47,480 bases of DNA from Lentisphaeria bacterium (GCA_041690595.1 JAWLHB010000055.1:1-47480); one strand, 5' to 3'. Counted from the first letter of the stretch, positions 21,657 to 43,905 are shown. Program-made: numbers and translations. Notes: a model not told the origin generated them from the sequence alone.

Positions 21657-22394
21657 TCAGAGGATCAGGCGGATGAGGGTGACCAAGCCGGCGAGGATGA
21701 GGAGGAGGCTGACGAGGGAGGCGAAGCGCGCCTGGTCCATGCGCACGGCGATCCGGTTGGCGTGCCAGCTGGCGAAGATGACGACGGGAATGGCGGCGGC
21801 CAACAGGGGAAAGGTGGCTTCCTGCCAGGCCTTGCCGAAGACGATCTCGACCACCAGGACGCTGTTGACGGCCACCCAGAAGAGGGAGAGCGTGGCGCGG
21901 AAGCCCGGTTTGGCGGGAAGTTCCTGCTGGGCATAGACGACGACGGTAGCGCCGCCGGCGGCGAAGGCCCCGTGGATGATGCCACCCACAAAGAGGAGCA
22001 GCCGCAGCAGGAGCGGGGGGCAGCGGCGCAACTGGCCGTCCTGCCGCGGGAGGAGCCGGCTGACTCCGGCGACGACGAGTACCAGGCCAAGTGCGAAGAG
22101 CAGGGGAGTTTCAGGCAGCCACTGCAGGGCAAGCATGCCGATCGGCAAGCCGCATCCGGCCCACAACACCATGCGCCCGAACTGTGGCCAGTCGATGTCG
22201 CGCCAGGTGAAAGCGAGCACCTGAACGGCCTGGATGGAGCCGACCAGAATGAGGACGGTGCGGGCGGTCTCGAGATCGACGAGCCAGACCAGCAGGGGAA
22301 GGGCCAGGAGGGTGGAGCCGTAGACCGCGATCGCTCCCACCCAGTGAGTGAGCAGGATGGCGAGAATCGCGAGAATGAAGTGAAGGGTAGTCAT
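21657..22394 (-). CDS. TauE/SafE (TSUP) family membrane protein
   Basis: About 245 aa, hydrophobic; GA...YGST.LALP, GGIIHGAFAAGG...V.Y, FRATL..FW. Confidence 0.85.
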   Translation of the reverse strand: MTTLHFILAILAILLTHWVGAIAVYGSTLLALPLLVWLVDLETARTVLILVGSIQAVQVLAFTWRDIDWPQFGRMVLWAGCGLPIGMLALQWLPETPLLFALGLVLVVAGVSRLLPRQDGQLRRCPPLLLRLLLFVGGIIHGAFAAGGATVVVYAQQELPAKPGFRATLSLFWVAVNSVLVVEIVFGKAWQEATFPLLAAAIPVVIFASWHANRIAVRMDQARFASLVSLLLILAGLVTLIRLIL

Positions 22395-22478
22395 CGGCGC
22401 ATACCATGGCACTGCTCAGCGCCCGGTGCCATGACTCCTGGCAGGCAATCTTGCAACCAATTATCAGAGGCGTTTTCA

Positions 22479-22506
22479 TTGACAGAGCCAGGCAGGGGGC
22501 TATAAT
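22479..22506 (+). promoter_or_regulatory. Consensus sigma70 promoter of the regulator-pilin-hydrolase operon
   Basis: TTGACA (22479-22484) - 16 bp - TATAAT (22501-22506), 31 bp upstream of the ATG at 22538, with a GAGG RBS. Confidence 0.75.
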
Positions 22507-22537
22507 ATACTAATTATTCACATGGCGAGGTTTTTGA

Positions 22538-23665
22538 ATGAAGAAATCTCTAATAGACTTTGCGCCGCTGGAACCGGTAAGCAAGCGCCGGCAGATCACG
22601 GAGCACGTTCGGAAGCTGGTGCTTTCCGGGGAGTTGGCGGCGGGGACGAAGCTGCCGCCGACGCATGCGCTGGCGGAGGAATGGAAGGCGCCGATGGCGA
22701 CGGTGCAGGCGGCGCTGGCGCCGCTGGTGAAGGAAGGCCTGCTCTATCGTCGGCCGCGGGTGGGCACCATCGTCTGTGAGCGCGAACGAAGCCTGACGCG
22801 GGTGGGGCTTTACCTGACGGGGCATCGGGATATCGACCGCATGGACACGTACATCAGCGCCCTGGTGACGCTGCTGCGCAAGCGGCTGGCGGAGCGGGGG
22901 ATCGCGTGCTCTTTCTGGGTGGATCCGCGTCCGCCGGAGGAGCAGGAGAGCCCGTGGGAGAGCCTGCTGACGGCGGCGGAGGCCAATCAGGTGCAGGCGA
23001 TCATCGTCCCATCGACGGACAAGTATCACGATGCGTGGTTGCGCAAGCTGCCGATTCCGGTAGCGTTCAACGGCACACCGGATCTACCGAGCCGCGTAAC
23101 GCAGGATCATGGGCAGCTGGCGGAGGCGGGGATACGCGAGCTGGCAGCGCTGGGCTGCCGATCGGTGGGCCTGATTTCGGTGACCAAGCGGGCCGTCAAG
23201 GGGCAGCCGCGGGAGCAGGGCGATTACGAACAGCTCTGCAGCCAGGCGGAGCGCACGGCGGCGGAGCTGGGGCTGGAGATGCGGGAGGAGTGGATACGGA
23301 CACCGCCGCCGGAAGGCTACGTGAGCGAGGCCATGGCGGAGCGCTTCGGCTACGAGAGCATCGCCGCGCTCTGGCAGGAGCCGGTGCGCCCGGAAGGGTT
23401 GCTGGTGTTCACGGATGTGGCGGCCCGAGGGGTGGTGGTCGGCTTGCTCGAACGGGGCGTATCGGTTCCGGAGGAGCTGAAGCTGGTGCTGCACCGCAAT
23501 GTGGAAGTGGGGATGCTCTGCCCCTTTCCCGTCAGTTATCTGGATACGAGCATCATCCTGGTCGTCGACAGCCTGATCAAGCAGATCGAGCATCAATACG
23601 ATGGCAAGAAGGTGCGTCCCATACAACTGCCCGTCAGCCTGTCCCGGCCGGAACAGGTGGGCTGA
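22538..23665 (+). CDS. GntR-HTH + LacI-type sugar-binding domain transcriptional regulator (AraR-like architecture)
   Basis: N-terminal QITE.VR....SG....GTKLP....LAEEW....TVQ.AL..L..EGL..RRPRVGT.V; C-terminal periplasmic-binding fold RPEGL.V..D..ARG....L.ERG.SVPEEL.LV. Confidence 0.9.
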
Positions 23666-23682
23666 ACAAGAAGGTGCAACAG

Positions 23683-24534
23683 ATGAATCAGCAACGCAAT
23701 GCGACGGCGACCTTCACGTTGATCGAGCTTCTGGTGGTGGTGGCGATAATCGGCGTTCTGGCCAGCATGCTTCTGCCGGCCTTGTCCCGCGCCCGGGAGA
23801 AGGGGAGGCGGACGGTCTGCATGAGCAATCTGCGGCAGCAGGGGCTGGCATTCGCGATGTATGCCGGCGACTATGACAGCCGGATGCCCGGCACAACCCG
23901 CACGCCCTACTCCTCCAGTCGCCTGTCGCACTATCAGCCAGTGGAACGGAGCTATCTGACCTATGCCAACGAGTTCATCGGCATCGCGACGACACCGAGC
24001 GGCGACAACGATCTGCGCACCGGATCGCTGACGGACGCGTTGGTCTGCCCGTCGAACAGCCTCGCGCGGATGGCCGAGTGGGATCCCAGCCACTGGAAGT
24101 CGCAGGTGCTCTATACGCCCCTGTATGGTGGGATGACCTCTGGTGCCGTCACCGACCGCAACAGGTATGCCTTCCCGCGGCTTGACCGGATGGGGGAGAA
24201 CGGTCCCAACGGCCCCAAGATGGTGGTGAGTGATTCCATGGCCAACACCGGCAATACCAGCGGCGCCTGGGGCAACTGGGTGCTCCGCAACAATCACCGG
24301 ATGGAAGGGGGGAACGTGCTGGTGGGCGACGGCAGCGCCCAATGGGCGGCATTCCGCGCTTGGGCGCAGTCCGGTTTCTCGGGCGAAGGGACGATGCTTC
24401 CGATTCGCGATTTCTACGTTTTTCGGGGCAGCACGGGCTGGAACGCGAACTACTACTGGTCCGGCCCCAATGGAAGCGGCGGATTTGCCAACTATGAAGC
24501 CACGCCCACGGTTTATCCCACCCTCTGGTACTGA
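23683..24534 (+). CDS. Prepilin-type N-terminal cleavage/methylation domain protein (DUF1559 / H-X9-DG-CTERM-like) 1
   Basis: ATG at 23683; [49 protein letters not shown]-terminal [14 protein letters not shown] (H-X10-DG). Confidence 0.92.
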
Positions 24535-24577
24535 TAACGTTACGCTATAACAACATCCTGTTGAAGGAGACTCACCC

Positions 24578-25348
24578 ATGCAAGTGCGTAGAACGCAATT
24601 CCGCCGTCCGTCAGCTTTCACCTTGATCGAGTTGCTGGTGGTGGTGGCGATAATCGCCATTCTGGCCAGCATGCTGCTGCCGGCGCTGAGCGCCGCGCGA
24701 GGCCGGGCTCGTCAGGCTTCCTGCCAGAACAACCTGAAGCAGTTGGGGCTGGCATTTCAGCTCTATGCGGATGAGTTCGATTCCAACCTCCCCTTCTGCT
24801 ACGACAAGGCGGGCATCACCTGGGGCTACAAGATTGCCAGCTATACTGGTGAGAGCTATCCGGTCGGGGCTTTCGCCGGCGCCGGCAAAGCGGGCCTCTT
24901 CAACTGCCCGGAGAACGGCAAGCAACGCTATGTTGTGGGCGGAGGGGCCGATGAAGACAGTACCAGCTATACAGCCAACGGCTGGTATACCCAGGGTCAT
25001 TTCGAGAGTACGCCACCCCTGATCGACAACCAGCCGCTCAGCCGAAAGACGTCGCGATTCAACTGGCCGAGCGAACTGCAGACGATGTGGGACGGCGTCT
25101 ACTACCGGGCCGAGTTCGGACAGCTCAATGGCCTCGGCGACGGGGCTGGCTCGATCCCGGTCAACTACGGAAGGGGACCGCGCAACATACGGTACGTCCA
25201 CCGCGGAGGCGTCAACCTGTCCTACGCCGATGGTCATGTGGCTGGTGCGCCGGGTCCAATACTCGACCGCGGCAGCTTTCAGGGCACAATCGGCGGCATC
25301 AACAAGTTCGTGAACGGGCGCTCCTGGTATGCCTATTATCCGTTCTGA
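24578..25348 (+). CDS. Prepilin-type N-terminal cleavage/methylation domain protein (DUF1559 / H-X9-DG-CTERM) 2
   Basis: [74 protein letters not shown] (H-X9-DG); GAAGGAG RBS. Confidence 0.94.
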
Positions 25349-25390
25349 GAGCGGCAGTCACGGCAGGTGGGATAGGATCAAGGGGGGATC

Positions 25391-28300
25391 ATGAAGCGAA
25401 GGTGGCTGACGATGGCGGCGCTGGCGTGGCTCTGGACCCTGGGGGCGGCCGCGGAGCGGGTCGATGTCCTGGTCCTGAGCAACAAGCTGCGGGTCGACGA
25501 TCGGCTGGCGGAAGAGCTGGCGGCGGGGGATATTCATCTCACGCGCCGCGATCTGGCGGAGCCGCTCACCATGGAGATGCTGCGCCTCTTTCACGTGGTC
25601 TTTATCGGTGATGGCGCGGAGGGATACAGCACCTACATCCTGCCTGACTTCATGGTGAAGAGCCGTACGCAGGAGCGCAATCTGGCGCTGATCGACAGCT
25701 ACATTCGCGCCGGTGGAGGCTTTCTCTTCACCCCCGACCTGGGCGGGCAGATCGGTGCCGAGGCGCAGTCGCGCCTGCTGAAACCGTATGGCGCGACGGT
25801 ACTTCCGCTGCAGGTGCGGGACGATGCTCACCGTTACGTTCCGCAACCACCGCCCAAGCGTGACGCCGGTTACGCCTGGACGACCGCGATCACCGAGCAT
25901 CCCGCCACCCGCGGTGTCTCCCGCATCTTCTATCCGACTCCGCAGCACCGCTGGGACGATTTCTACTCCACCGCCGCCATGCGGCTTGAGGATCCTGCGT
26001 GGACGACGCTCGTGCGTGGCATGGAGAGCAGCACTGCCTCCCGCTGCATTCTGTACGAGGACTGGTCGGTGGTCGATGCCACGCCGCCTCCGATCGCCGC
26101 CGTTCGTCAACTCGATGGTGGCCGCATCGGCCTTCTCGCCATCATGTCGTACTATACGCTCTGGCATCCCTACTGGACGCCGGCGGATCATGACAAGTAC
26201 CAGAGCAAATGGGGGCGCGGTCAGATCGGCGAACGGACGACCGGCGACATCGACGGGATCTTCATGGAGAAGGGCGACGGCGTCCAATCCAGCCAGGGAC
26301 GCGAGCTGCTCGCGGGTATGTTCCGCTGGCTGGCCGAAGACGCACGGGCAGCCGGCATGGGCGGCTACACCCAGGCAACCTTCGCCGCCCTCGAGGCGCC
26401 CGAAGCTATCGTCGCTCCGGAGTGGCCCTTCAAGTGGAAGAGCGATCCGCCTCAGCGGAACTTCCGCCTGCTGGTGGGAGCGCGCAGCAGCTACAGCGAC
26501 GGCGAGGGCAGCCTGGAGGCGTATGCCGCGGCCGCCCGAGAAGCGGGCATCGACATCCTGATGATGACCGAGAGCTTCGCCTCCTTCGATCCGGCACGCT
26601 GGCAGGAGTACCATGCGGCCTGCCAGGCGGTGAGCGACGAGCGGCTGACCGTGATGCCGGGGCTCGATATCGAGGACAGCTATGGCGCGCGCTACCTGCT
26701 GCTCAACTCGCCCGTCTTTCCGCAGTCCTTCATGCTGTCGGCCGATGGCAAGGCACTTGAACAGGTGCACTACCTCTGCTTGTGCTTTCCGAAGGCGATC
26801 ACGGTGGCACATCGGGTCACCAGCAGCCCCATTCCTCACCAGTTGATCAAGCATTTTCAGGGGATATCCGTCTACACCTACAATGGAGAGCACGAGCTGG
26901 TGGACAACAGCCTGCCTGCCTGGGAATGGGAGATGTTCCGCTTCTCCAACCCCATGCTTTTCACCGTCCACGAGATAGCGTCGCCCGCTGCGGTGGCGGA
27001 AGCCGCGAGCAGCGGTCACCAGCTCTACGCCGCGGCTCCCACGCGGGAGGATCTGCTCTGGTATCTGGGGCAGCATGGCACGGCCCACTTCTGGCAGTCG
27101 CCCGTTCACCTGCAGGTGTCGTCGGGACCGCTGTTGAGCGCTTTCGGGAATCAGCCTTTCCTGCAACTGGAGAGCGAGCGCCCCCTTCGCGAGGTACGGC
27201 TTTACCAGAACTACGAACTGTATCGCCGCTGGCTTCCCGGGGGAGAGAATCGGTTCACGGTGGAGCGGGTGCGATTACCGGAGTCGCATGTCAACTGGGC
27301 TTATCTGACGGCGGTCGATGCCGAAGGTGGAACGCTGCTTTCGCCTGGGGTTCGTTTCGGGCGGCAGGTTGGCCACACGTGGCGCTGCGGTGATCGGCAG
27401 AACTGGTGGGTCTTTCCCAACATCTACACCGGCACCACCATTGCGGAGTTCGACATTCGGGTTCCGGTACCGGGCAGCGCGGAAGGCTCCGGCGGCACTC
27501 TGGGCTTCCCCAACTATCACGGCCCCCAGCGCGGCGACAACCTGGCGCCGCTGCTCGACTTCGTCTTCGCCTCGCCCGCGGTGTACATCCAGGACGTTCT
27601 GATGGATCAGCGGTATTACCATGCAATTGCTCAGGAAATCGTCTTCGACGCCAAGCCGGCCCACGCCACCACGCGGGGGCGCGTCTACCAGGCGCGCGTC
27701 CGCTATCACCAGTTCTTCGAGCCCGAGCTGCCGGCGTTGCCCATGCTCAAGGAGATCGAGCTGTCGTTGCGCCGTCCGATCGTGGTGGAGGATGCGATCT
27801 TTCCAGTGATCACGTCGCTGGACATGAAGAACCACCGCCTGCGCGGGGACATGAGCTATGCGTACACGGATCCGGCAAGCGGCGAGGCCGTCTCCGGCCA
27901 GTTGACCAAGGGCGTTGTCGATATTCCCGCTGGCGGCAGGATCGGGGGGGTGATCGTGGTCTCGGGCACCTTGCGGGTGGGAGCGAACAACCGCGTGGGC
28001 TTTCCGGCGCCAGCCGACCCCTTCACGACGTTGCCGGCGGGCGCCAGTTGGCGCGCCTCCGTGGTGACGGTGCCACCGGAGCAGGCGGAGAGGTGGCGAC
28101 ACTTGCTGGGGTACGCGGGAGCGGCACCCTACCGCCTAAGTGCCAGCCAGGGAGAGTTGCTCTCGTCGGGGCTGGTGGCCACCTGCAAGGCGGTGGATCA
28201 TGGGCTGGCCGGTTCGGTCGAAGAGGCGCTTCCCGCTTCGGCACTCGAGGGGCTGATCGCGGGCCATTCCGACGAAAAGGGCAGCCCCAACCTGCCGCTG

Positions 28301-28672
28301 CGGACGTATCGCCTGCCGCTCAAGATCTCGGGCATCAACAGCCACTGGCCGGCGGCGCTGTGGCGTCCGGAAGGGCTCTTCGAGGAGATCTCGGTTTTCG
28401 AGAATCACGGATGGGCACGGCTCGACATCGCTCGCCCCGGTGCCTTCTACGCCGGCAACACGTTGCTCGCCTCGGTACCTCATCTGCGCCTCGCCATCCT
28501 TTCCTGGACGGCCGATCGCCTGGTCTTTGAGGTCAACAATGCCAGCAGCGAGAGCGTAAACGCGGAGATCTGGACGGCGGCCGCGATTGCCGATCGCCTT
28601 CAGCTTCACCGGTCCCTTCAGCTGCCTGCCGGTACGTCCCGCATCGTGACCTGGACCGAGGCGACCGAGTAG
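25391..28672 (+). CDS. Large secreted hypothetical protein with a degenerate PHP-like (CehA/McbA-like) domain
   Basis: Signal peptide MKRRWLTMAALAWLWTLGAAA; N-terminal GATase-like segment (YIRAGGGFL, EHPATRGV); GARSSYSDG.GS...Y..AA.EAG.DIL..TE matches the PHP pattern but lacks its histidines. Confidence 0.7.
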   Translation: MKRRWLTMAALAWLWTLGAAAERVDVLVLSNKLRVDDRLAEELAAGDIHLTRRDLAEPLTMEMLRLFHVVFIGDGAEGYSTYILPDFMVKSRTQERNLALIDSYIRAGGGFLFTPDLGGQIGAEAQSRLLKPYGATVLPLQVRDDAHRYVPQPPPKRDAGYAWTTAITEHPATRGVSRIFYPTPQHRWDDFYSTAAMRLEDPAWTTLVRGMESSTASRCILYEDWSVVDATPPPIAAVRQLDGGRIGLLAIMSYYTLWHPYWTPADHDKYQSKWGRGQIGERTTGDIDGIFMEKGDGVQSSQGRELLAGMFRWLAEDARAAGMGGYTQATFAALEAPEAIVAPEWPFKWKSDPPQRNFRLLVGARSSYSDGEGSLEAYAAAAREAGIDILMMTESFASFDPARWQEYHAACQAVSDERLTVMPGLDIEDSYGARYLLLNSPVFPQSFMLSADGKALEQVHYLCLCFPKAITVAHRVTSSPIPHQLIKHFQGISVYTYNGEHELVDNSLPAWEWEMFRFSNPMLFTVHEIASPAAVAEAASSGHQLYAAAPTREDLLWYLGQHGTAHFWQSPVHLQVSSGPLLSAFGNQPFLQLESERPLREVRLYQNYELYRRWLPGGENRFTVERVRLPESHVNWAYLTAVDAEGGTLLSPGVRFGRQVGHTWRCGDRQNWWVFPNIYTGTTIAEFDIRVPVPGSAEGSGGTLGFPNYHGPQRGDNLAPLLDFVFASPAVYIQDVLMDQRYYHAIAQEIVFDAKPAHATTRGRVYQARVRYHQFFEPELPALPMLKEIELSLRRPIVVEDAIFPVITSLDMKNHRLRGDMSYAYTDPASGEAVSGQLTKGVVDIPAGGRIGGVIVVSGTLRVGANNRVGFPAPADPFTTLPAGASWRASVVTVPPEQAERWRHLLGYAGAAPYRLSASQGELLSSGLVATCKAVDHGLAGSVEEALPASALEGLIAGHSDEKGSPNLPLRTYRLPLKISGINSHWPAALWRPEGLFEEISVFENHGWARLDIARPGAFYAGNTLLASVPHLRLAILSWTADRLVFEVNNASSESVNAEIWTAAAIADRLQLHRSLQLPAGTSRIVTWTEATE

Positions 28673-28699
28673 AGACGAGATCCCTTTCAAGGAGCGACG

Positions 28700-31159
28700 A
28701 TGGCACGCAAGAACGATATCCCCAAGGATCTGGAGATCTGGGCTGGTGGCCCGCAAGGGCTGCGACTGCGCCGGCACCCCAGGCTGGACGAAGCCCTGAA
28801 GTATCTGGATGAGTTCCCCATGGTCATCCGCAAGCCGGTCGTCATCGACACTACCAGGTTGCCTTCAGGCGCGCGCCCGACGCTGGAGCTTGGTTCGGCG
28901 CCAGTTTTCGTGCGCAGTACCGTCGGGGAAGCCGCCTTTGTGCGGTTGGAGATCGACATCCCGCGCCTGGCCACGCGCCGCGTCGTGCAGTTCGCTCGTC
29001 TCTTCATTGCCGCCGGTGAGACGCTGCTGGAGGAGCATCTGGTGGTGAGGCCGGGGAAGCGCCAGGTCCTGATGCTGCCCTTTCCCGCATGGGAAACGGC
29101 GACGCTCTTCACGGTGAGCATGGAGCTGCGGGAGTGGGGGGAGGCGGGAAAGGTGAAAGCGGCCTTTCTGCTCAAGCCGGAGAAGCGGCTGACCTTTTAC
29201 TATGCCTTCCAGACGCACCTGGACCTGGGATGGACCGATCGGGTCGAGAAGGTGGTGGCATCGCTGAGAGAGATGACCCGCAAGACGGCGATCGACGTGT
29301 GCCGCCAGTTCATGGATCGGCCGGAGGGGGGGCGCTTTGTCTGGACGTGCGAGTGCAGTGATGCGCTGCGGCTGGCTTGGGAAGGGGCGGACGCAGGGGA
29401 GCGTGAATCCCTGCGCGAGATGGTGCGGCGGGGGTTGATTCAATCCTGTGCGCTGCCGTACAGCTTCCATACGGGGTTGATGAGCCGTGATCTGCTGGGC
29501 CGGGCTATCGCCCGCAGCTTCGCCCTGCGGCGGGAGATGGGGGTGGAGGACGAGCTGGATCTGAGCGTCGCGCAGAACAACGACGTGCCGGGCCACAGCT
29601 GGATTCTTCCGGATGTTCTGGGCGAAGCGGGCATTCATCGCGCCGTCATCGGGCACAACCACATGGTTCGCGGGTGCGCGTTGCCGCCTCTTTTTATCAT
29701 GCGTGGTCCGGGTGGGCATGAGGTGCTGACGCTTGCCTCCACCTGCGTCGACTATGGAACGGATCAGCGGATTCCCCAGCGACCGGAGGATCTGGCGGGC
29801 TTGTCGGCAAACAATGCCGAGGCATGGAGTCTGCCGGGGAGCGCCTGTCTGCACCGGATCGGGCATGGGGAAAACTGCGGCCCGGACGAGGCGCTGCGCG
29901 AGCTGGAGGCGATCGACTCCTGGAATCGCCTCCATGCGTGGCCGCGCCTCGTGATCGGCTCGCCGAAAGACTACTTCGACCATATCGAGGCGGAGATCGA
30001 CCGGTCGGCGCTGCCGGTTGTCGAGCGCGAGCTCAGCGACTGGTGGATCGACGGCCCGGCCAGTACGCCGCGCGCCATGGCGGCATATCGGAAGGCGATG
30101 ATCCTCCTGCCCGAGTTGGAGCGGCTGGTGCCGCCGGATGCCGCGGCGGATCGCGCCATGCTGGCGAGCATCGAGGAGAACCTCATCCTGCACGCGGAGC
30201 ACACCTTCGGCATGAATGCGCAACTGGTAAAGGTGAAGTCGGCGGAGCAGGAGTGGGCGTTGCGGGGACTGGAGAATTATGCCGGCTCCTGGGAGGACAA
30301 GGAGTCCTACGCCACGCGCGCCAGCCAGGCAGTCGACGCGCTCAGGACGACGTATGCGCTGCCGGCGAGTGCGGCCAACGGGGGACGCGACTGGAGCATT
30401 CAGTGGGACAATCTCGGGCTTTGCCTCCTGCGGGATCCGGATGGCGCCTGCTGGTACGATCGGGCGAAGGCCCCGGATTCGCTGCCTTTCGGATCGCTGG
30501 TGCAGCGGCTGTTGCCGACGGAGTTGGACGAATGGTTTCATCATGATCCGCCGGCCGCTCCGGCTCCGGGCGAGTACCCGATGTCGCTGGAGAGCGTGCG
30601 CGGCAATGCCAACGGGGTCACCTTCAGCGGCAAGCTGGCCTCACCGGCTGGTGCGATTGAGGCGGTCGAGGTCGAGATCGTCAACGATCCGGGGAGCGAG
30701 GATCTGCTGATTCACCTGAAGGTGAGCGGCAAAGAGGCGACGGCGCAGGCGGAGCTGCTGGCGCTGGCGTTGCCCTTCACCGTCGATCACCCCAGCTATG
30801 TCACCGACGTGGGCGGCGCGTTGCTGCGGGTCGACGATGATCAGCTGCCCGACGCCAATCGCGATGCGCATCCCACAATCGCGGGTTGGGTCATGACCGA
30901 TCGCGAGACAGGTTTCAGCCTTGCGGTCAGTTCGGCGGAGGTATCCCTCTGGCATTTTGGAAACTTGCGCTATTGTGACTGGAATCGCACGGCCGCGCCG
31001 CGCGGGGGAAGCGTCTATGGCCATCTGTTCAACAATGTGTGGAACACCAACTTTCGCTGCTGGCTGGCAGGCGATCTTGCCTGCACACTGCGGCTTCGCC
31101 GTACCAGCACGCCGCTGCAGAGCCTTCACGACATGACCATGTACTGGAGCCTTCGATGA
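28700..31159 (+). CDS. Glycoside hydrolase family 38-like (alpha-mannosidase fold) protein
   Basis: QTHLDLGW (GH38-type HxD), NDVPGHSW, EHTFG, D.W.DG..S and C-terminal NNVWNTNF. No signal peptide. Confidence 0.75.
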   Translation: MARKNDIPKDLEIWAGGPQGLRLRRHPRLDEALKYLDEFPMVIRKPVVIDTTRLPSGARPTLELGSAPVFVRSTVGEAAFVRLEIDIPRLATRRVVQFARLFIAAGETLLEEHLVVRPGKRQVLMLPFPAWETATLFTVSMELREWGEAGKVKAAFLLKPEKRLTFYYAFQTHLDLGWTDRVEKVVASLREMTRKTAIDVCRQFMDRPEGGRFVWTCECSDALRLAWEGADAGERESLREMVRRGLIQSCALPYSFHTGLMSRDLLGRAIARSFALRREMGVEDELDLSVAQNNDVPGHSWILPDVLGEAGIHRAVIGHNHMVRGCALPPLFIMRGPGGHEVLTLASTCVDYGTDQRIPQRPEDLAGLSANNAEAWSLPGSACLHRIGHGENCGPDEALRELEAIDSWNRLHAWPRLVIGSPKDYFDHIEAEIDRSALPVVERELSDWWIDGPASTPRAMAAYRKAMILLPELERLVPPDAAADRAMLASIEENLILHAEHTFGMNAQLVKVKSAEQEWALRGLENYAGSWEDKESYATRASQAVDALRTTYALPASAANGGRDWSIQWDNLGLCLLRDPDGACWYDRAKAPDSLPFGSLVQRLLPTELDEWFHHDPPAAPAPGEYPMSLESVRGNANGVTFSGKLASPAGAIEAVEVEIVNDPGSEDLLIHLKVSGKEATAQAELLALALPFTVDHPSYVTDVGGALLRVDDDQLPDANRDAHPTIAGWVMTDRETGFSLAVSSAEVSLWHFGNLRYCDWNRTAAPRGGSVYGHLFNNVWNTNFRCWLAGDLACTLRLRRTSTPLQSLHDMTMYWSLR

Positions 31160-33345
31160 ACGACGCGACACAGGTGCGACGACTGGATGTATCGGACGAG
31201 GTGAGCGTGGAACTGGTTGTCGATGGGGAGCGCTTGCTGGGGCTGGGAAGCGTCTGGGTGGGCGGGTTGGCGATACGCTCGAACGCCGCGCCGCTGCGGC
31301 CCGACTTCTCCACCCCGGATGCGATTCACTATCAGGATTTCCTGCTGCGTGAAACCGAGATGACCGAGGCGGGGATCGTCCTGCGCACGGTGGCGCTGGG
31401 GCGGCCGGAAGTGTACGGCGAAATGATGGATGAATACAGCTACAATCTGGCCGTGCCGCGTTTGCGGACGGAGCAGCGCGACCGGCTCGACTGGATCCTG
31501 AAGGCCGCGGAGCTGACCTTGGACGGGGAGCGCTATGTGGGGCTTTCGCTTAGCTTCCGCTTTCACAGCGAAGCGAACGAGATCCATCGCTTCACGACGG
31601 TGGCAACCTGGGAGATCGGCGGCAGCGCGGAAGGCAACACCATCTACCACCAGTCGTACACCTGTCCGCCCGTCTTCGAGGTGACGACGGCGAACCATTT
31701 CTCGACGACATGCCTGAAGCGGCTGGACCTGTGGGACAGCTGGCTGGGTCATTCCTACCAGATGCTGCCGCGCTGGGGGGCGATACAGCCCTTCGATTTT
31801 CTCGCCTCGGAGGATGGTGTGCTGCTGGGCTACTGGCCGACGCCTCATTCGGTGAAGAGCCTCGTCCAGACGAATGCCGGCGAACCCGTCATCTTCGTGC
31901 TGGACGAGTACAATTTCGCCCTGTCCAAGGAGGTGGAGATACCCGCCAAGCACCTGCTCTTCAGCCGTGGCGGGCGGGCAAGGCACGAGGTCGTCAACAT
32001 GTGGACCCGCGCCTGCGACCATACGTCGGCCGTGATCCGCGGTTTCTTCGGCATCGAGCCCAGTCTGCCGACGCCGGGTGGTGGGCCGGTTTACGCTGGC
32101 CGGAACAGCGTGCCACGCCACGAGCTGGCGAAGGGGCGGCAGGAGGATTGGCTTTGGAAGGTCGACAACGGCTCCTTCTACTTCAAGCTGGATGGGGAAT
32201 GGGTAGCGAGCCGCGACAAGCTCTACTGGCTGGCGGACCACAAGCTCCCGGAGTTGGCGGCGCGGGGCATCGAGCGGGTATGGTTCGAGCCGGTCCATGA
32301 AAGCGACTTCACGGAGGATGCCTTTGCGCATCATGCGGAGACCGGGTGGCATGGCGACCTGACCGTCTGCAGCATCTGCGGCAGTCGGCGCTATGTGCCG
32401 GCGGAGTTCTACGACGGCTGGCGTGGCTGGAACTACCTGGCGGATGCGGCACGCCGGCTGGGCCTGAAGCTCGGCCACTGGGTCGGGCTGCACCTGACGC
32501 CGCGTGCCCCGATCCTGCGCGATCACCCCGAGTACATCCTGCAACACGTCAACACCCTCGGCCACAGCGGCGGCTACAGCCACCTCTCGATCTGCTCGAT
32601 CAACTGGTGTTCGGGCGCCAAGCAATGGTTCCTGGATGACATGCGGCGCTGGCATGACGAAGGGGGGCTGGAGTGGCTCTTCTTCGACTCCTGGCCCAAC
32701 CTCGGCTGCAGCCCGCTCAACTATGGCGGGCGCATGGAGCCGATGCAGTGGGAGATGGGCGACTTGCTGGCGCGATTGCAGGAGATCGGTTACAACTGGT
32801 TCAGCTTTGAGGGAACCAGCCCCTTCGGCGTCCACCAATATGGCCTCTGGGATCCGATGCAGGAGTATGAGCGGCACACCTCCGGCGGCGTCATGGGACA
32901 GAACGACTTCGGCTGGTGGCTTGGCCATGAATACATGGGGTACAACCAGTGCCTGGGCCCGAAGGTCAACCGCGGTCGGGATCGGGCCCTCTTGCCGGAG
33001 ATCTCCTTCCGCTATGCGGCGAACCGTTCGCTCACCATGGTGCAGGAGAATCATGAAAGGCATTACCCGTACGTCAAGGGGCTCGATCGCACTTGCGCGC
33101 GGCTGCAGCCGCTGATGCAGAAGCGCTACCTGCTGCCCGATGACCAAGGCGTGCGCTGGGAGAGTCCGCGGGGACAGGCGCTCTTCGCTTACAAGCCGTT
33201 CGACTTCCCGGTGCCTGCCGGTTCCCGGGTTTATCGCGTGGAGGGCGGCGAGGAGACCGCCGTCAGTTGCGCCAATGAGAGTGTACATGCCACGCCGTTT
33301 TCGGCGTATCGAATCAACCCCCCAACGGAGAAAGAGACGGAATGA
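31156..33345 (+). CDS. Hypothetical protein, putative TIM-barrel glycosidase
   Basis: ATGA overlap with the upstream stop; Trp/Tyr-rich; LAD.A..LGLKLG.W and G..WLFFDSW resemble clan GH-D-type barrels. No family recognised with confidence. Confidence 0.65.
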   Translation: MNDATQVRRLDVSDEVSVELVVDGERLLGLGSVWVGGLAIRSNAAPLRPDFSTPDAIHYQDFLLRETEMTEAGIVLRTVALGRPEVYGEMMDEYSYNLAVPRLRTEQRDRLDWILKAAELTLDGERYVGLSLSFRFHSEANEIHRFTTVATWEIGGSAEGNTIYHQSYTCPPVFEVTTANHFSTTCLKRLDLWDSWLGHSYQMLPRWGAIQPFDFLASEDGVLLGYWPTPHSVKSLVQTNAGEPVIFVLDEYNFALSKEVEIPAKHLLFSRGGRARHEVVNMWTRACDHTSAVIRGFFGIEPSLPTPGGGPVYAGRNSVPRHELAKGRQEDWLWKVDNGSFYFKLDGEWVASRDKLYWLADHKLPELAARGIERVWFEPVHESDFTEDAFAHHAETGWHGDLTVCSICGSRRYVPAEFYDGWRGWNYLADAARRLGLKLGHWVGLHLTPRAPILRDHPEYILQHVNTLGHSGGYSHLSICSINWCSGAKQWFLDDMRRWHDEGGLEWLFFDSWPNLGCSPLNYGGRMEPMQWEMGDLLARLQEIGYNWFSFEGTSPFGVHQYGLWDPMQEYERHTSGGVMGQNDFGWWLGHEYMGYNQCLGPKVNRGRDRALLPEISFRYAANRSLTMVQENHERHYPYVKGLDRTCARLQPLMQKRYLLPDDQGVRWESPRGQALFAYKPFDFPVPAGSRVYRVEGGEETAVSCANESVHATPFSAYRINPPTEKETE

Positions 33346-34823
33346 AGGACAGCAGACTCAATTATGCGGGATTCGCCCTTGCGGTGAGCCTGTTGCTGGT
33401 GCTTCCGTCAGTTGCCATGAATCACAATCTCGCGGCCCCCTGGGGCGATGGGTGCTCGCCACCACAGACCCCGTATCTTGCCTTTCACAGTCCCCAGTCC
33501 GATAACCTCCTCTTCGTTGACGGCGAGAGCATCGAGGTGCGCTGCCAGGCCGGCCTGCGATCGGTGGCGTTGACCTGGACACTGCACCGCAACATGCTGC
33601 GCAAGTCTTTCCGCGAAGGCGTTGCCGAAGCGCTGCCCGGGAATCGTTTCATCATCCGTCTCGATACCGCTGGCCTCCATCCCGGGTTCTACGATCTGCG
33701 CGTGCAACTCGACACCGGGATCGTGAACTCGGAGCGGGACCGTCTCGCCAAACGTCCGGTAACCGGGGTCTGCACCTTCGGCTGGAAAGCCGATCAGTTG
33801 CCGATTGCCGATACGCGTCCCGCCGACTTCAGCGACTTCTGGGCGGAGGCGCGGGCGAAGCTGGCCCGGATTCCGCTCGATGCGAAGGAGGGAGAGCTGG
33901 AGAGCTTCGGGCCGGAAGAGATCGGCGAGTACAACCTGAAGTCGGCTTGCCTGCCGGCGGACTACGATCCACAGGGTCACAAGGTCGAGCGGGTGCTTTC
34001 GGGCAAGGTCGATTTTGCCGGTCCGGATGGTGGGCGGGTCTACGGCTGGCTGGCGAAGCCGGAGGGCGAGGGGCGCTTTCCGGCGATGCTGGTCTTGCCG
34101 GGGGCCGGATTTGCGGCGCGGCCGCGACCACTGGAGCATGCACGCCACGGCTACGTTGCGCTGGACATCCAGGTACACGGGCAGGAGGTGGATCTGGCGG
34201 AATATCCCAGGCTACCGGGGTACTATGACGAGCCGCAATATGAGCCTGCGTCGGCCTATTACTTCCACAACGTTCACCTGCGCTGCCTACAGGCAATCGA
34301 GTACCTGCTGTCGCGTCCCGACGTGGATCCGGAGCGCCTGGTGGTGGTGGGCGGCAGCCAGGGAGGGCGGCTCGGGATTGTGGTCGCGGGGCTGGATCCG
34401 CGGGTCAGGGCGGTGGTATCCTGCATCGCCAATTCGCCGAACCAGCCGCACCTGCGCTGGGTCTCCCGCTGCAACGGCTATGCGGAGTACGGAGATAAAA
34501 AGCCGGATCCCACCATTCCCCTGGATGACGGCATGGCGAGGAGCGGCGCTCCCGAGGTGAGCGAGGATGTCTCCAGTCGCTGCTTTGCCTACTACGACCC
34601 CATGAACTACGCGCCGGATATTGAGGGCGCGGTGCTGATGAACGCGGGCCTCACCGATTATGTCTCGCCTCCCTTCAGCATCTGGGCGGTTTACAACCGG
34701 TTGACGACGCCGAACCGGCAAATGGTCGCCATTGCCGGGCATGCGCACGACTGGTCGGCGGAGTTCGATCGCCTCGCCTGGCGCTGGCTGGATGAGCTTT
34801 TTGGCGAAGGGAAGGCACGATGA
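33342..34823 (+). CDS. Acetylxylan esterase / cephalosporin-C deacetylase family (CE7), secreted
   Basis: Signal peptide; PADFSDFW, YGWL.KP...G.FPA.L..PG.G, YL.SRP.VD.ERL.V.GGSQGG, YYD..N.A..I, GLTD..SPP, C-terminal His; ATGA overlap. Confidence 0.88.
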   Translation: MKDSRLNYAGFALAVSLLLVLPSVAMNHNLAAPWGDGCSPPQTPYLAFHSPQSDNLLFVDGESIEVRCQAGLRSVALTWTLHRNMLRKSFREGVAEALPGNRFIIRLDTAGLHPGFYDLRVQLDTGIVNSERDRLAKRPVTGVCTFGWKADQLPIADTRPADFSDFWAEARAKLARIPLDAKEGELESFGPEEIGEYNLKSACLPADYDPQGHKVERVLSGKVDFAGPDGGRVYGWLAKPEGEGRFPAMLVLPGAGFAARPRPLEHARHGYVALDIQVHGQEVDLAEYPRLPGYYDEPQYEPASAYYFHNVHLRCLQAIEYLLSRPDVDPERLVVVGGSQGGRLGIVVAGLDPRVRAVVSCIANSPNQPHLRWVSRCNGYAEYGDKKPDPTIPLDDGMARSGAPEVSEDVSSRCFAYYDPMNYAPDIEGAVLMNAGLTDYVSPPFSIWAVYNRLTTPNRQMVAIAGHAHDWSAEFDRLAWRWLDELFGEGKAR

Positions 34824-37474
34824 AGCCGGCCATGCAGGGGCAGTGGATCTGGAGCGGCCGGGCGGACGGGCATAATGACTGGCGACAGGTGCGCCACGCG
34901 TTCGAGGTAGCCGGGCGTCCATCGCGGGGCGAGCTGTCGATCACGGCGGATGCGCTCTATCAGGTGTGGCTCAACGGCCGGATGATCGGCCATGGGCCGG
35001 CGAAGTCGGCGAAGGGGAGTCGCGGCATCGACCGGTACGACATCTCTGGATTGCTGACGCCCGGAAACAACCTGCTCGAAGCGCTGGTGCTCAACATCGG
35101 CACGGGCACCATGTGTTACTGCCCGGGCGAACCCGGTCTGTGCTTCGATGTGGTTGTAGATGGTCATCTGGTGGCCACCAGCGGCAGAGAGACGCTGATG
35201 CGACCCGATCCCGCTCGCCGTTCGGATACGGTGCGCCGCTGGATGCTGCCCTGCCTGGAGGATGTGGATGCCGCGGTGGAAGCGGAGGCGTGGCAGGCGG
35301 CGGAGATCGTCGAGCGGAAGCTGGCGCTGTATGCGCGGCGGGTGCCTCCGGCCAGCCGCCAGCCTCTGGTTCCCGAGCGTCTGGTGCAGGCGGATCGGGT
35401 ACGATTTCCGACCTTCAGCATCAGCTTTCGGCACAAGCCGTACCTGGTGACGCCGCATGAGGTTACCCGTCAGAACTGCTATGCCACGCCGGCATGGTTT
35501 GTCACCGATATCCTCTCGCCGATCGACCAAAGGCTCCATCTCACGCCGACCCGCGGCAGCGTGACCTGGCACCATGAGGGGCTACAGATCGCTGCCGGCT
35601 CAGGTTGGGGGCCCTGGACGCCGGGCGACGCGAATCCTGGTATCATTGACCTGAAGGCGGGCGCCAATCGTCTGATCGGCGTACACTCGCACGATCATTT
35701 CGCGGAGTTCAATCTGGCCGGCTACAGCGAGGCGCCCGTGCGCTTCGTCAACCCCTTCGGTGAAGGCAGCTTTCAGGTGGTGCTGACGGAGCAGAAGGTG
35801 CCCGGCGAGGTCGATTGGGAGGCGTTGCGCCCCTCGATGCCGGAGATGGATCCCTGTCATACGATGCTGGAGGCGAACGCGCAGGATCTGGTGCTCGGCG
35901 CGCAGGTGATCGGCGAAGAACCGTTGCTGGTGTGCATTCCCGCCTCGGAGCCGCTGGAGCTTCCCTCGGCCCCCGAAGGCGAAGCCGTGCGTCTCATCGT
36001 CGATCTGGGCATGGTGCACAATGGCTGGCTGGCCTTCGACGTCAATGGCAATGCCGGCAGCCGCCTCATCTTCTCCTTCTTCGAGGGGATCGATGCGGGA
36101 CCGCCCCTGCGACTGCACTGGGCCTACGGCTGTGAGAATGCGCTGACGTACCGCCTGGGCGAAGGTCCACAAAGCTTCGAGAGCTTTCACCCCTACGGCG
36201 TGCGTTACATCGCCATTCATCATACCGGGAACACGCCCGTTCGACTGGGCAATCTGCGTGTACTCACCGCCAACTGCGGCAGCCGACCGCGGGGATACCT
36301 GCAGTGCAGCGATCCACTGCTCAATGAGATCTACGCGATCGCCGTGCAGTCGGTCATTTCCAGCGTCGACGATACCTTTACCGACTGCCCGACCTTCGAG
36401 CAGGTCAACTGGAACTTCGACAATCGCACTGCCTTCATGGGCGAGGTGCTCAGCTGCGCCAACCTGGCCGTCAGTCGGCACAGCATCGAGCTCTTCGCGG
36501 AAGATCCGGAGTTCACCGGGCTGGTGCGCAGCCAGTATCCGAGCGTCTGGGACAACTTCATCCCCCTCTGGTCGCTGCACTGGATCATGTGGTGTCGTGA
36601 CTACTGGTGGGCCACCGGCGACATCGCCTTTGTGAAGAGGCTCTTTCACCGAATCGCGGCGGGCGTCGAAGAGGCGCTGGGCCGCATCGACGCGCGGGGG
36701 CTGCTGGCGTGGGAAGGAGTCTGGCACTTTGTCGAATGGGGTCATGGACGGGATGACGGCCATGCGGTCAACGGGTGTGAGCAGGCGGGACTGGCCGGCG
36801 CCCTGGCCGCGGCCGTGGAGTTGGCGGAGCAGCTTGGCGATCCGCGGGCGGGAGAATGGGAAGGTGCCCGCCGGCAGTTGATCGAGGCCGTCAATCGCGA
36901 GCTGTGGGTCCCCGAACGCGGTGCGTACGCGGACAGCCTGCACGCCGACGGAAGCCTTTCCAGCGTCTCCAGCCAGACGACGAACGCGATGATGGCCGTC
37001 TATGGCATTGCCTCGGAGGATGTGGCCCGCGACCTGGCGCGGCGCATCAGCGAAAAGGAGGCGGGGCTCCTGCCATACGGCAGTCCGTACGGCCTCTTCT
37101 ATATCCTGGAGCTTTACGATCGCTTCGAGATGGTCGAGCCGATCTTTGCGGCGATTCGCCATCGCTGGGGGGACATGGTCCTTGCCGGCGATCGCACGAC
37201 GTGGGAGCATTTCGCGGAATTCGGCGGCCACATGGGCTTCCCGACGCGCAGCCGCTGCCACCCCTTTGCCGCCTACGTCATCAAATACCTGGTCAAGTAC
37301 CTGATGGGCATCCGTGCGGAGGGGCCGGCTTTCGCGAGCCCGCTAATACTGCCGGCTCCACCACGTGGCATCACCTTCTGTCGCGGTGCCATTCCCACGC
37401 CAGGTGGCCTCCTGCGCACGGGCTGGCGACGGCAGGCGGATGGCGAGGCAATCGAGGTGGCTGAGGCGACCTGA
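34820..37474 (+). CDS. Alpha-L-rhamnosidase family protein (GH78)
   Basis: WIW, ITAD..YQVWLNG..IG.GP, YDI..LL.PG.N.L, SD.LLN.IY, TDCPTFEQ..W..D, SQ.TNA, TTWEHF, SRCH, G.IPTP.G. Confidence 0.87.
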   Translation: MKPAMQGQWIWSGRADGHNDWRQVRHAFEVAGRPSRGELSITADALYQVWLNGRMIGHGPAKSAKGSRGIDRYDISGLLTPGNNLLEALVLNIGTGTMCYCPGEPGLCFDVVVDGHLVATSGRETLMRPDPARRSDTVRRWMLPCLEDVDAAVEAEAWQAAEIVERKLALYARRVPPASRQPLVPERLVQADRVRFPTFSISFRHKPYLVTPHEVTRQNCYATPAWFVTDILSPIDQRLHLTPTRGSVTWHHEGLQIAAGSGWGPWTPGDANPGIIDLKAGANRLIGVHSHDHFAEFNLAGYSEAPVRFVNPFGEGSFQVVLTEQKVPGEVDWEALRPSMPEMDPCHTMLEANAQDLVLGAQVIGEEPLLVCIPASEPLELPSAPEGEAVRLIVDLGMVHNGWLAFDVNGNAGSRLIFSFFEGIDAGPPLRLHWAYGCENALTYRLGEGPQSFESFHPYGVRYIAIHHTGNTPVRLGNLRVLTANCGSRPRGYLQCSDPLLNEIYAIAVQSVISSVDDTFTDCPTFEQVNWNFDNRTAFMGEVLSCANLAVSRHSIELFAEDPEFTGLVRSQYPSVWDNFIPLWSLHWIMWCRDYWWATGDIAFVKRLFHRIAAGVEEALGRIDARGLLAWEGVWHFVEWGHGRDDGHAVNGCEQAGLAGALAAAVELAEQLGDPRAGEWEGARRQLIEAVNRELWVPERGAYADSLHADGSLSSVSSQTTNAMMAVYGIASEDVARDLARRISEKEAGLLPYGSPYGLFYILELYDRFEMVEPIFAAIRHRWGDMVLAGDRTTWEHFAEFGGHMGFPTRSRCHPFAAYVIKYLVKYLMGIRAEGPAFASPLILPAPPRGITFCRGAIPTPGGLLRTGWRRQADGEAIEVAEAT

Positions 37475-40390: not shown

Positions 40391-43300
40391 TCAGCGAGAG
40401 AGGACGAAGCGTTGTGGGCCGGCGGGAAGCGCGAGGGTCAGGCGATTGCCGTCGCGGACGGTGGCGAGCGGTTTACCGTCGAGAGTGACATGGACCGGTG
40501 CGACATCCGGGGGCAGCAGCAGAACCACCTCCCGAGCGTCGCCGTCGCTCTCGCCGTGGATGCCGGTACCATCGACCGTAAGCGAGAGCGGACCGGCTCC
40601 CTCGATGCGCCAGGTGCCGATGGAGGCGTAACCACTGCCGCTGACGATGGCAAGGCGCAGGTTGTCTTCGGCGCTGTAGCGGGCAAAGGCGATCTCGCCT
40701 TGCAGCGAGAACTCGCCATCGGCGACGGTGGCGGCCTTGCCGGGGGAAAAGATGACCAGATCCCGGCCCTCCATGTGGGCGACGCGGGCCGCTGCATTCC
40801 CGGCAAGAGCCGCGATCTCCGCGGCTGCCTGACCTTGTGTGCGCGGATAGAGGATGGCCAGGAAATCCTCGCTGGAGCCCTGCTTGCGGACGCGGATGGC
40901 CGTTTGGTCTTCGCGGAACTTGCCCCAGGGATTGACCCATTGCTCATAGCCGTAGCTGTCCGGGATCAACACCGCGTTGGCGGGCGAAAGCAGGTGGGCA
41001 TCGAGGTCGACGCCGAACTGGCCGGGGAAGTGGGCGATGCTGCCGGTGATCTCGGGCGGACCGGCCATGCACCAGAGATTCCAGGTGAAGGACTGATTCG
41101 GCTGGCCGTCGACCGTTGCGTCGCGGATGACCAGATAGGTCGCGCCGAGGGGGTCGGAGGACTTGACGAGGAGCATGTGGCGCTGGTGGCGCTGGCCGCC
41201 GCCACCAAAGGAGATGCCCGTGGAGTAGTCGATGACCGTCGGGAGGCTGATGGAGCCCTGGCCGGCGACATTCTGTTCGCGGGAGCCGCTGCTGGGGGGC
41301 CAATACTCATGCGGCTCGGCCCTGTCGAAGGAGACGGTGTTGTGATACATGGGCTTCCACATGGTGTGCACCTCATCGGCGGTGGCGCCGCGATGACCGA
41401 AGTCGACGCAGAGAGGGACCCCCTTGGCGTAGTACATGAAGCTGTTGTGGTCGCCGGGATCGTAGTGGTGGGTGTAGTAGCCGCAGCGATGGGAGACATA
41501 GCTGGCATTGCCGTCGTTCCATGAGGTGCGCATGACGTTGCCGAAGCCCGGAAAGGCGCGGGCGGTGTCAGCAGGCAGGGCCGCGGGAAGATCGGGATCG
41601 CAGATGGCGGCGATGAAGCCGGCGCGGCCGCCGTTCAGGCAACTGTAGGCCTGTCCCTGCCAGTAGCTCTGCTGGCGGGCACTGTAGGCGGGATCGCTAT
41701 CGGCAGTCTGGCGCGCCATCCAGCCGTTAAAGGGATGGGTGAAGCAGGGGAAGGCATCGCCAATGCTCGGTACGGTCATCGGCGCGGGGATTTCCGCTGT
41801 CTTGAGGGCCGGGAAGCGCAAGTCCGGAGCGGTCTGGATGAAGCCGTAGTACTCCATGGTCGCCTTGAACTGGGGGTCGATGAAGTAGTTCCTGCCCTTG
41901 ACGTTCTTCAGCGCCTGGGCGAGGAGGAACATCCCGTCGAGGGAGGGGGCCTGATACATGGGACATTCGAGCCAGGCGCCGCCGGGAGCGATCCAGTCGC
42001 GCAGCTCGCGCTGAAATTCAGCTTCGGCAAAGGCAAGCCAGTGATCCGACCGCGGATGGCCGTCGAGGAAGAGACCCACCAGGCCGAGGGGAAGCTTGAG
42101 CAGGCTGGTCATGTTGGGGTTGGCGCTGCACAGACCCACATCCGTATTCCAGTAGTCGGGATGATCGAAGACGTAGCCACCGAAGACCAGAGCCGCCTCG
42201 ATCTCGTCCTTCTCCTCCTGGCTCAGGAGGCCGGTATCGGCGACGGCATCGTAGGCGAGGAGGAGGCGGAGCATGGTGGTGCCGGCCATGTGCGCGTTGC
42301 CGCCGAGGGTCGGCCGCCCTGGAGAGGTCAGGAAGAGGTCGACATGCTGCCGCGCCAGCCCCTTCACGCCGGCCGCCAGTATGATCGCGTACTTCGGATC
42401 GGCCGAACCAAGGTATGCCTGCGGCGCGACATCGTAGAGGCCGTTGCCGACGTAGTTCTCTTTGAAGAAGCGCTGCCAGCCGTCCGGTCCCGACTGGATC
42501 TTGGCGACCAGATCCGAGCCAAGGCGGCCAAGGTAGGTGATCGCCTTCTCGACATCCGCCTTCATCATCGGCACGCTCCGGGCCTGGAGGCGGGCGCGAT
42601 CGACATCCGCCTGCGTGAAGAGGAGGAAGGGCTGCTTGCGCTCGGAATTGGCACGCGGAAAGTCGAAGTGAAACTCCTTCACCTCGTCCAGTGGAAACTC
42701 GCTGTGCTTGAGGAGCTGGGCACGGAGTTTGACGCCATGGGGATCGTTCGTGACGTGGTCTTCGACGGTGCCGACGGTGAAGGCCAGCTCGCGGTGGGCG
42801 GGGACGATCGGCGCATCCGGCGTCGCGCCGGGCAGGGCGCGCAAGGCGAGGGTGAGGTCGAGCTGACCACCGGGACGGGCCGTGATCGGGATGGTGGTGC
42901 GGGCAAAGCCGGCCCATTCGGTGGGAGTCCAGCGGGAAGGACGCATGGCGATCACCCCGACAAATGGCGCCTTTCCCTCCTGATAGAAGCCGCCCCAGGT
43001 TGCCTGATCCTTCAGCCACCAGTAGCTCCAGGGACAAAGCTTGGCGAGTAGCGTCTCCTCCGTGAAATCTATGGGGGCCGGCTCCATCCCCTTGTTCAAC
43101 TCCGCGTAATAGTTGCTGCGCCAGTAGAAACGGTCGGCGCCCAGCCCCTTCTGAAAGGAGAGGCGGATAGCGGTATCGGGGGCGTCGACGTCGGTGTCGT
43201 CGGTAAAGAGTACCACCTCCTGCTGGGCTCCGAGGCTGATGTCGGCCTGGTAATAGCGATTGTCGGCGAAGGTGAGGCGATACCGCAGAGAAATCCGCAG

Positions 43301-43870: not shown

Positions 43871-43905
43871 GATAGCTCCAGGCATTGCCGGTTGTCGATA
43901 GCCGA

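Follow-up and report, generated by a model that had tools for sequence, protein, structure and literature searches.

How might a bacterium acquire a polysaccharide through a locus that encodes a regulator, pilins and enzymes and no transporter? The question is raised by positions 22479 to 37474 of a 47,480-nucleotide window (the whole stretch of Lentisphaeria DNA analysed, to which all positions refer), from an 8.1-Mb genome that is 97% complete and holds 5803 genes by the gene calls of this analysis. The run encodes a GntR/LacI-type regulator, two prepilins of the DUF1559 type, an exported 1093-aa protein and four proteins resembling glycan enzymes. These eight genes, their order and their packing, as given by the original prediction, were recovered from the sequence, the gene calls and a Pfam scan; no gene matched a TonB-receptor, SusD, ATP-binding cassette (ABC) or major facilitator superfamily (MFS) family, in agreement with the transporter-free run proposed. 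DUF1559 is among the most expanded families without assigned function in Planctomycetes-Verrucomicrobia-Chlamydiae (PVC) bacteria, and a passage of PMC5394234 calls the polysaccharide uptake route of Planctomycetes and Verrucomicrobiota still uncharacterised.

The answer proposed here, whose chances we put at about even, is that the pilins are substrate-matched subunits for glycan capture on a type IV pilus that would be shared and can probably retract. It starts from what is observed: a layout that recurs across the genome, a predicted pilin fold, pilin clades that go together with particular protein families, and a genome poor in TonB receptors. From these we infer glycan binding, pilus assembly, retraction-driven uptake and co-transcription.

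DUF1559-type pilins number 175, in 167 loci of the genome. For 70 of 174 the first non-pilin gene upstream is a GntR/LacI-type regulator on the same strand, compared with a background of 2.5% of genes, which confirms the expected enrichment of DUF1559 genes behind such regulators. Conversely, 64 of the 146 GntR/LacI-type regulators in the genome, the window regulator being one of the 146, have a pilin next, and 57 pilins head their own runs. The first downstream genes (n = 116) tend to be long (72 encode at least 700 aa; background 14%) and exported (59 with a signal peptide by a crude rule; background 20%), the most enriched families being DUF4838 proteins (26/54) and GH123-like proteins (19/34). 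The cassette of regulator, pilin and exported glycan protein is well supported as a real, general gene system; the mechanism suggested for it is conditional.

Carbohydrate-active enzymes (CAZymes) were also expected behind the pilins. From 60 of 109 pilin runs drawn at random the first 40 were used, and 58 of their 64 downstream proteins were scanned, along with 119 control genes out of 177 lying more than three genes from any pilin. Glycan-related Pfam matches (glycoside hydrolases, polysaccharide lyases, carbohydrate esterases and carbohydrate-binding modules; table read by eye) were found in 25/58 downstream proteins and 13/119 controls (p 3e-6), an enrichment over background that is explained by length and export (see below). 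A signal peptide was present on 20/29 glycan matches behind pilins (DUF4838 included) versus 1/13 in controls. None of the 58 was a transporter and 20 had no Pfam match; if glycan capture is the function, uncharacterised exported proteins behind pilins are candidate new glycan-active families. A CBM9-like domain of ~190 aa occurs in 74 proteins of the genome (for example L033:3133-7164 and L026:3109-6534) and in none of the window; of the 66 large carriers, 23 come first after a pilin, compared with 29 of 279 large exported non-carriers.

Both window prepilins belong to the PVC family characterised by DUF1559/SBP_bac_10 (PF07596), N_methyl (PF07963) and H-X9-DG (TIGR04294). Prepilin 1 (283 aa; 23683..24534, + strand) and prepilin 2 (256 aa; 24578..25348, + strand) each have an N_methyl segment and match PF07596 at 24.3 and 41.7 bits (cut-off 23.3) and TIGR02532 at 22.8 and 27.6 bits (cut-off 16.3). 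The leader of prepilin 1 ends in Thr and that of prepilin 2 in Ala, each followed by F1-T-L-I-E5. Of the H-X9-DG motif ascribed to both, prepilin 2 has the exact form (TIGR04294 18.4 bits, cut-off 19), whereas prepilin 1 has H-x10-DG and no TIGR04294 match; among the genome paralogues the exact spacing is found in 73/174 and a spacing of 8-13 in 134/174. F1, E5 and C36 are invariant (174/174, one mis-parsed gene being left out), and P22 is present in 173. The model of prepilin 2 (pLDDT, the predicted local distance difference test, 70) shows a type IV pilin fold whose variable loops are long. Pilins and pseudopilins fill the top 11 rows of its structural matches, the best being PilA4 at a middling Z of 5.7 (root mean square deviation (rmsd) 2.8, 111 aligned), with ComP among the top rows (Z 4.7); Foldseek with the same model gave no match with E < 0.001. 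The sole prepilin peptidase, PilD (L001:511-1767, G000:C11; 418 aa), has both A24_N and Peptidase_A24 domains. The invariant F1 and E5 and this one intact PilD point to processing and assembly of the pilins. PilD also has an apparent insertion of ~100 residues ahead of the Peptidase_A24 match, and its specificity may be relaxed.

The variable heads are very divergent (median best match 32%) and are related to what lies beside them. Heads that resemble each other have a neighbour family in common in 21/61 pairs (permutation mean 3.0, maximum 11 over 5000), and among the top 20 similar pairs a family is shared in 8 for pilins versus 2 for regulators; whole-cassette duplication would yield part of this pairing. 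The association crosses phyla. For pilins at L073 and L083 (Victivallales) and L076 and L077 (Phycisphaerae), prepilin 2 ranks second or third of the 175, and they group with it at a Shimodaira-Hasegawa-like approximate likelihood ratio test support of 90 in a quick tree with many long branches. A reverse test used 20 regions picked around best matches (several from the same genome; L354 repeats L083): members of the prepilin-2 clade had F14, the family of the 1093-aa protein, F36 or F190 within two genes in 15/15 regions holding the clade, and relatives of prepilin 1 had the exported family F36 within three genes in 6/6. At 16 loci best-matching the 1093-aa protein itself (≥ 37% identity), a pilin lay at most two genes away in 7, was lacking in 5 despite at least 3 kb upstream, and 4 had too little flank. 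A metagenome scan with the prepilin-2 alignment returned generic pilins only. As the partners of one clade come from three families whose predicted folds differ, a shared substrate fits better than a one-to-one adaptor, and shared-substrate pairing is favoured on these sequence comparisons, with a pilin-partner complex still compatible.

Transporters are scarce in the genome as a whole, with 4 TonB-dependent receptors, 29 ABC permease genes, 16 MFS and 2 sodium/solute symporter (SSS) genes (MFS_2 adds none). None of the four TonB receptors is within five genes of a pilin, as had been anticipated. The striking point is this genome-wide scarcity and not the local absence; the missing transporter in the locus was rejected as evidence on its own (305 downstream genes include 1, where about 2.5 would be expected). 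Over 41 genomes, PF07596 candidates per Mb (a first-look count and loose proxy, giving 218 in this genome versus 175 counted pilins) fall as TonB receptors per Mb rise (rho -0.49; related genomes are not independent). No TonB receptor was found in 7/7 genomes of family f7, which have up to 272 pilin candidates, while those of family f5 have up to 25 receptors and 3-19 candidates. The idea of a distinct glycan-acquisition system thus keeps the genome-wide layout and the near absence of TonB receptors in its favour; the transporter-free locus and the CAZyme enrichment lose weight.

If the pilins share a machine, its genes should be elsewhere (PilD, PilB, PilC and secretins were the ones to be located), and all of them are, as is PilT. 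PF00437 is matched 20 times, and match length and context mark PilB/GspE-like and PilT-like ATPases among these; there are also 6 secretin matches and two to three gene sets for a type II secretion system (T2SS). The best candidate appears to be an operon on contig C7 in which a DUF1559 pilin is followed by a secretin, PilM, a gene in the PilO position, an uncharacterised gene and PilB. C7-type secretin and PilM were found in 9/10 genomes of the same order outside f5 and in 0/5 of f5, and a pilin heads the C7-type operon in 6/6 same-order relatives with upstream sequence, compared with 0/6 f6 loci. That f5, which lacks the C7-type machine, has few pilins and many TonB receptors counts for glycan capture. 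In f7 and f9 there are PilM operons that carry secretin genes in tandem, two or three in each (L258, L259 and L260; G025, G020 and G027); these are possible alternative machines. Short (~160-aa) conserved DUF1559 pilins with Gly(-1), which adjoin O-antigen-ligase/TPR genes (L210:2340-3545, G000:C28; two members), are likely to be housekeeping major pilins; four degenerate short copies lie at the end of C32 (G000:C32:1-2282). Elsewhere, a 1500-aa frame (L211:3717-8216, - strand; G000:C3) joins an ABC exporter (membrane and ATPase parts) to a secretin C-domain, either as a fusion or through an assembly artefact.

The cassette is common but lineage-dependent. In 40 regions of relatives, taken from top PF07596 matches and not at random, a regulator directly precedes a pilin in 8/14 f7 regions, 1/10 in f9, 0/12 in f6 and 0/4 in f3/f4. 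Genomes of f6 have tandem pilin arrays without regulators. Pilins of f9 at L273, L274, L276, L277 and L280 adjoin homologues of one gene encoding 625-690 aa (best match g2137).

Proteomic support comes from a cultured relative. Parts of PMC13274419 describe an alginate cluster of Verruconatronum alginivorum (pgaptmp_000046-60) with a 251-aa 'PulG-like pseudopilin' (000050) that has 67 homologues. In Table S3 (one replicate) this protein reached 0.513% with alginate as substrate and was at 0 with mannose or sucrose; it was the most abundant protein of the cluster, at 5-24 times the lyases (0.021-0.111%). Most pilins of similar size were undetected or below 0.04%, with one constitutive at 0.9-1.8%; a 129-aa pilin adjoining a PilT gene rose from 0.006 to 0.222%, and 0/9 TonB-annotated rows were induced. 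As in the window, a pilin-like gene stands ahead of exported proteins within a glycan cluster, and there it is substrate-induced. In contrast to the window, an SSS symporter is present. Protein 000050 is pilin-like by its annotation and a putative DUF1559 member. The authors proposed T2SS export of alginases for the pseudopilin and, in the portion of their account used here, do not present the paralogues as a library matched to substrates. Together with the pathway-specific heads and machine genes encoded elsewhere, this induced paralogue lends the predicted scheme of substrate-specific pilins on a shared machine part of its support.

Type 4 filaments with specificity subunits and pilus-linked glycan use in PVC bacteria are already known. 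ComP for DNA capture (part of PMC10191384) and TcpB/CofB for exoprotein export (part of PMC10120004) each lend a type 4 filament its specificity, as suggested here for the window pilins, but with one or few subunits per genome and DNA or a single protein as cargo, and no glycan library. Excerpts of PMC5394234 report pili-like planctomycete fibres that bind dextran and energy-dependent periplasmic uptake. The Akkermansia MUL2 locus, as told in PMC13174399, ties type IV-like pilus genes to glycan attachment and uptake in Verrucomicrobiota. MUL2 is, however, a single conserved locus of four genes, among them those for PilM (MUL2B) and an archaeal-type pilin (MUL2A), whereas here 175 variable pilins are spread across regulated operons; the window locus has no PilM or assembly gene, and PilM genes are on other contigs. 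DUF1559 expansion, expression and gene neighbours with signal peptides have been reported in Planctomycetales (sections of PMC8567305); the part of that account used here gives no regulator-pilin-glycan cassette and no function, where the present data link the family to sugar regulators, exported families and a candidate machine. PMC11685898, PMC13526803 and bioRxiv 10.64898/2026.09.21.753266 do not mention 'pili' or 'pilin', and type IV pili come up once in part of PMC11131199. In the literature searched, supplements lying largely outside the search, the cassette was nowhere described as a system. The present analysis adds the pairing of clades across phyla, a candidate machine with the genomes in which it occurs, negative controls and the stoichiometry seen in the proteome.

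A polysaccharide-utilisation locus of Bacteroidota places a regulator, a specificity module and glycan enzymes, some exported and some cytoplasmic, under common regulation. The window likewise has a regulator and glycan enzymes together, but its run lacks the susC/susD pair and has neither a TonB-dependent transporter nor SusD; each Bacteroidota locus brings its own pore, while here any pore would be shared. In the sequence of events proposed, a breakdown sugar would appear and the GntR-LacI regulator free the promoter. The pilins would be processed by PilD and assembled into a pilus encoded elsewhere, and a variable pilin head would bind an acetylated, likely rhamnose-containing glycan. PilT-driven retraction might then draw chains to or through a secretin, that of the C7 operon being the best candidate, and the exported 1093-aa protein and the CE7 esterase would bind, trim and de-acetylate the glycan. 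Oligosaccharides would cross the inner membrane via one of the few shared permeases, and three signal-less hydrolases would finish the work. A bolder version, possible but on balance doubtful, is by analogy a 'competence for glycans', in which ~175 interchangeable pilins replace SusC/SusD, the induced pilin taking over a shared retractable pilus that pulls polysaccharide through a secretin into the periplasm, and the C7-type operon serving this order as its dedicated machine. If capture holds, pilin clades would mark substrate range, as SusD families do in Bacteroidota, and the cassette supplies the named parts: pilin, regulator, exported partners and candidate machine.

Several results weigh against capture by a shared pilus. 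Among proteins of at least 500 aa, glycan matches behind pilins do not exceed those of controls (22/45 versus 11/31, p 0.35). CAZyme enrichment was rejected as independent evidence for this reason: it arises because downstream proteins are long and exported, and export is what differs. Since transporters are scarce across the whole genome, their absence from this run is not special, and inner-membrane transporters within three genes of pilins are not depleted (9/47, background 15.5%). The anti-correlation with TonB receptors is not significant when the means of 12 families are compared (rho -0.37, p 0.23); genomes G031 and G040 are rich in both. Two queries found no C7-type secretin or PilM in the pilin-rich families f7 (0/7) and f9 (0/8), whose genomes hold 3-16 other secretins, and the C7 operon was on that account rejected as a universal machine. 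No regulator precedes a pilin in the 12 f6 regions, and a pilin is present in just 13/53 loci with F14 homologues. The prepilin 2 model has no lectin-like domain and its loops fall below pLDDT 50. Part of PMC10191384 calls Gly or Ala at -1 invariable for type 4 pilins; here just 30/175 leaders have either, 53 have Arg, and prepilin 1 has Thr. The V. alginivorum proteome is a single replicate with a shallow mannose column, from a cluster with its own symporter.

Much of the same data also fits the most serious rival, which we nevertheless consider unlikely: the pilins would be cargo-specific adaptors of T2SS/type IV pilus export, binding the operon's exported proteins while these are periplasmic and pushing them out or displaying them at the surface, like TcpB with TcpF. 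Genes behind pilins are selectively exported, pilins track their neighbours more tightly than regulators do, the CBM9-like domain marks proteins encoded directly behind pilins, and T2SS gene sets are present. Precedents lie in parts of three papers: exoprotein export (PMC10120004), the alginase export proposal (PMC13274419) and signal-peptide flanks (PMC8567305). Against it, one pilin clade occurs with three families of different predicted fold. No domain recurred in every first-downstream protein (81 proteins in 30 groups), and the same set gave no universal docking domain and no PEP-CTERM or lipoprotein anchor; the window proteins lack the CBM9-like domain as well. The 40 of 53 F14-homologue loci without a pilin nearby, the excess of the pilin-like protein over the lyases in V. 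alginivorum, and the need to import glycan in a genome with 4 TonB receptors, which export alone leaves unexplained, also count against it.

Distinctly improbable is that the pilins are never cleaved and, anchored in the inner membrane, serve as periplasmic domains for binding or sensing, keeping oligosaccharides ready for shared permeases or for signalling. The unusual leaders and the few permeases of the genome suit such anchors, as does a portion of PMC8567305 in which Tuwongella family members fractionate unlike ordinary pilins. But the T2SS pseudopilins on C53 and C28 of this genome mostly lack Gly/Ala(-1) too, which suggests that PilD of this lineage is probably less strict about its cleavage site, and the invariant F1 and E5 would be needless for a plain anchor. 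A family member heads the secretin-PilM-PilB operon in 6/6 relatives, and in the model the pilin fold extends over the whole domain.

That the pilins do no more than adhere to particles (or vary so as to change antigens or escape phages) and simply share regulation with the operon, small sugar products entering by porins, is highly improbable: the regulator-free tandem arrays of f6, the 57 pilins heading their own runs and the reading of MUL2 as an attachment device (PMC13174399) would suit it, but pilin clades pair specifically with exported glycan families across phyla, and three glycosidases without signal peptides would imply oligosaccharide import.

Within the run, a predicted sigma-70 consensus promoter (TTGACA-N16-TATAAT, 12/12 match; 22479..22506, + strand) lies 32 bp 5' of the regulator start. 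There are just two such perfect matches in the genome; the promoter scan overall is at chance level (3 matches versus 2.6 expected), and no convincing operator palindrome was found in the intergenic region before the regulator. The regulator (375 aa; 22538..23665, + strand) combines a GntR winged helix (PF00392, E 2e-13) with a LacI-type effector domain (Peripla_BP_3, PF13377, E 2e-14). Gaps of 17, 43, 42 and 27 bp are followed by three ATGA overlaps (31156-9, 33342-5 and 34820-3), as the predicted spacing of under 45 bp and three overlaps had it.

The exported 1093-aa protein (25391..28672, + strand) has a signal peptide, a GATase-like domain, a metal-less PHP barrel and a beta-rich C-terminal half; it matches no family in Pfam or NCBIfam. 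In its AlphaFold model (pLDDT 88) the GATase-like domain is closest to OST48 (Z 17.4) and IFT52-N (Z 16.1), and the PHP barrel aligns with 2anu (Z 15.9, rmsd 2.8, 192 aligned); the beta-rich domains were barely probed by structure search. PHP proteins usually carry a metal-binding His-x-His after strand 1. Here that site reads A-R-S, within a consensus GARSxFSDG over 37 homologues, and His-x-His is found in none of the 10 of 22 genome paralogues in which the motif could be located. A PHP barrel without His-x-His justifies the 'pseudo-PHP' label given originally. F14 comprises these 22 paralogues, with homologues in Lentisphaeria, Armatimonadota and Phycisphaerae; at E 1e-20 the protein was found in none of 40 sampled relatives, though it is present in other genomes. 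Its putative role is glycan binding or processing.

By inspection, only this protein and the CE7 esterase have signal-peptide-like N-termini in the run. The signal-less 819-aa GH38-N-like protein (28700..31159, + strand) has Glyco_hydro_38N (PF01074, E 1.8e-11) as its sole family match and no PDB sequence match at E 0.1. The 729-aa protein (31156..33345, + strand; no signal peptide), predicted as an unknown barrel, indeed has no Pfam family and no PDB sequence match, but resembles DUF6259 clusters (Atlas clusters with PF19773, score 0.98) and is a putative glycoside hydrolase barrel; one of its genome paralogues matches Melibiase (PF02065, E 4e-4). The CE7 acetyl esterase (493 aa; 33342..34823, + strand) has a signal peptide, a GGSQGG nucleophile motif and matches to AXE1 (PF05448, E 7e-33) and acetyl xylan esterase 6agq (E 1e-26). 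The GH78 alpha-L-rhamnosidase-like protein (884 aa; 34820..37474, + strand; no signal peptide) matches Bac_rhamnosid6H (PF17389, E 1e-27) and Rhamnosidase B 2okx (E 3e-74). Because CE7 and GH78 are in the operon, an acetylated, rhamnose-containing polysaccharide is a plausible substrate. The mannose that had been added to it is backed only by the distant GH38 N-terminal domain match.

Beyond the run, two large exported proteins (40391-46953, - strand) have weak Heparinase II/III and DUF4861 matches; their families follow pilins elsewhere, and here the upstream region runs off the contig. A TauE/SafE-family permease (21657..22412, - strand; PF01925, E 2e-21) is divergent from the operon across the same intergenic region and heads a run with a 489-aa protein and a URO-D-like gene; it is one of two of the genome's three TauE genes in the window, the other being at 7849-8607 (+ strand). 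An 1842-aa surface adhesin-like protein (13401-18929, + strand) contains Calx-beta, cadherin-like, Ig and DUF5122 propeller domains.

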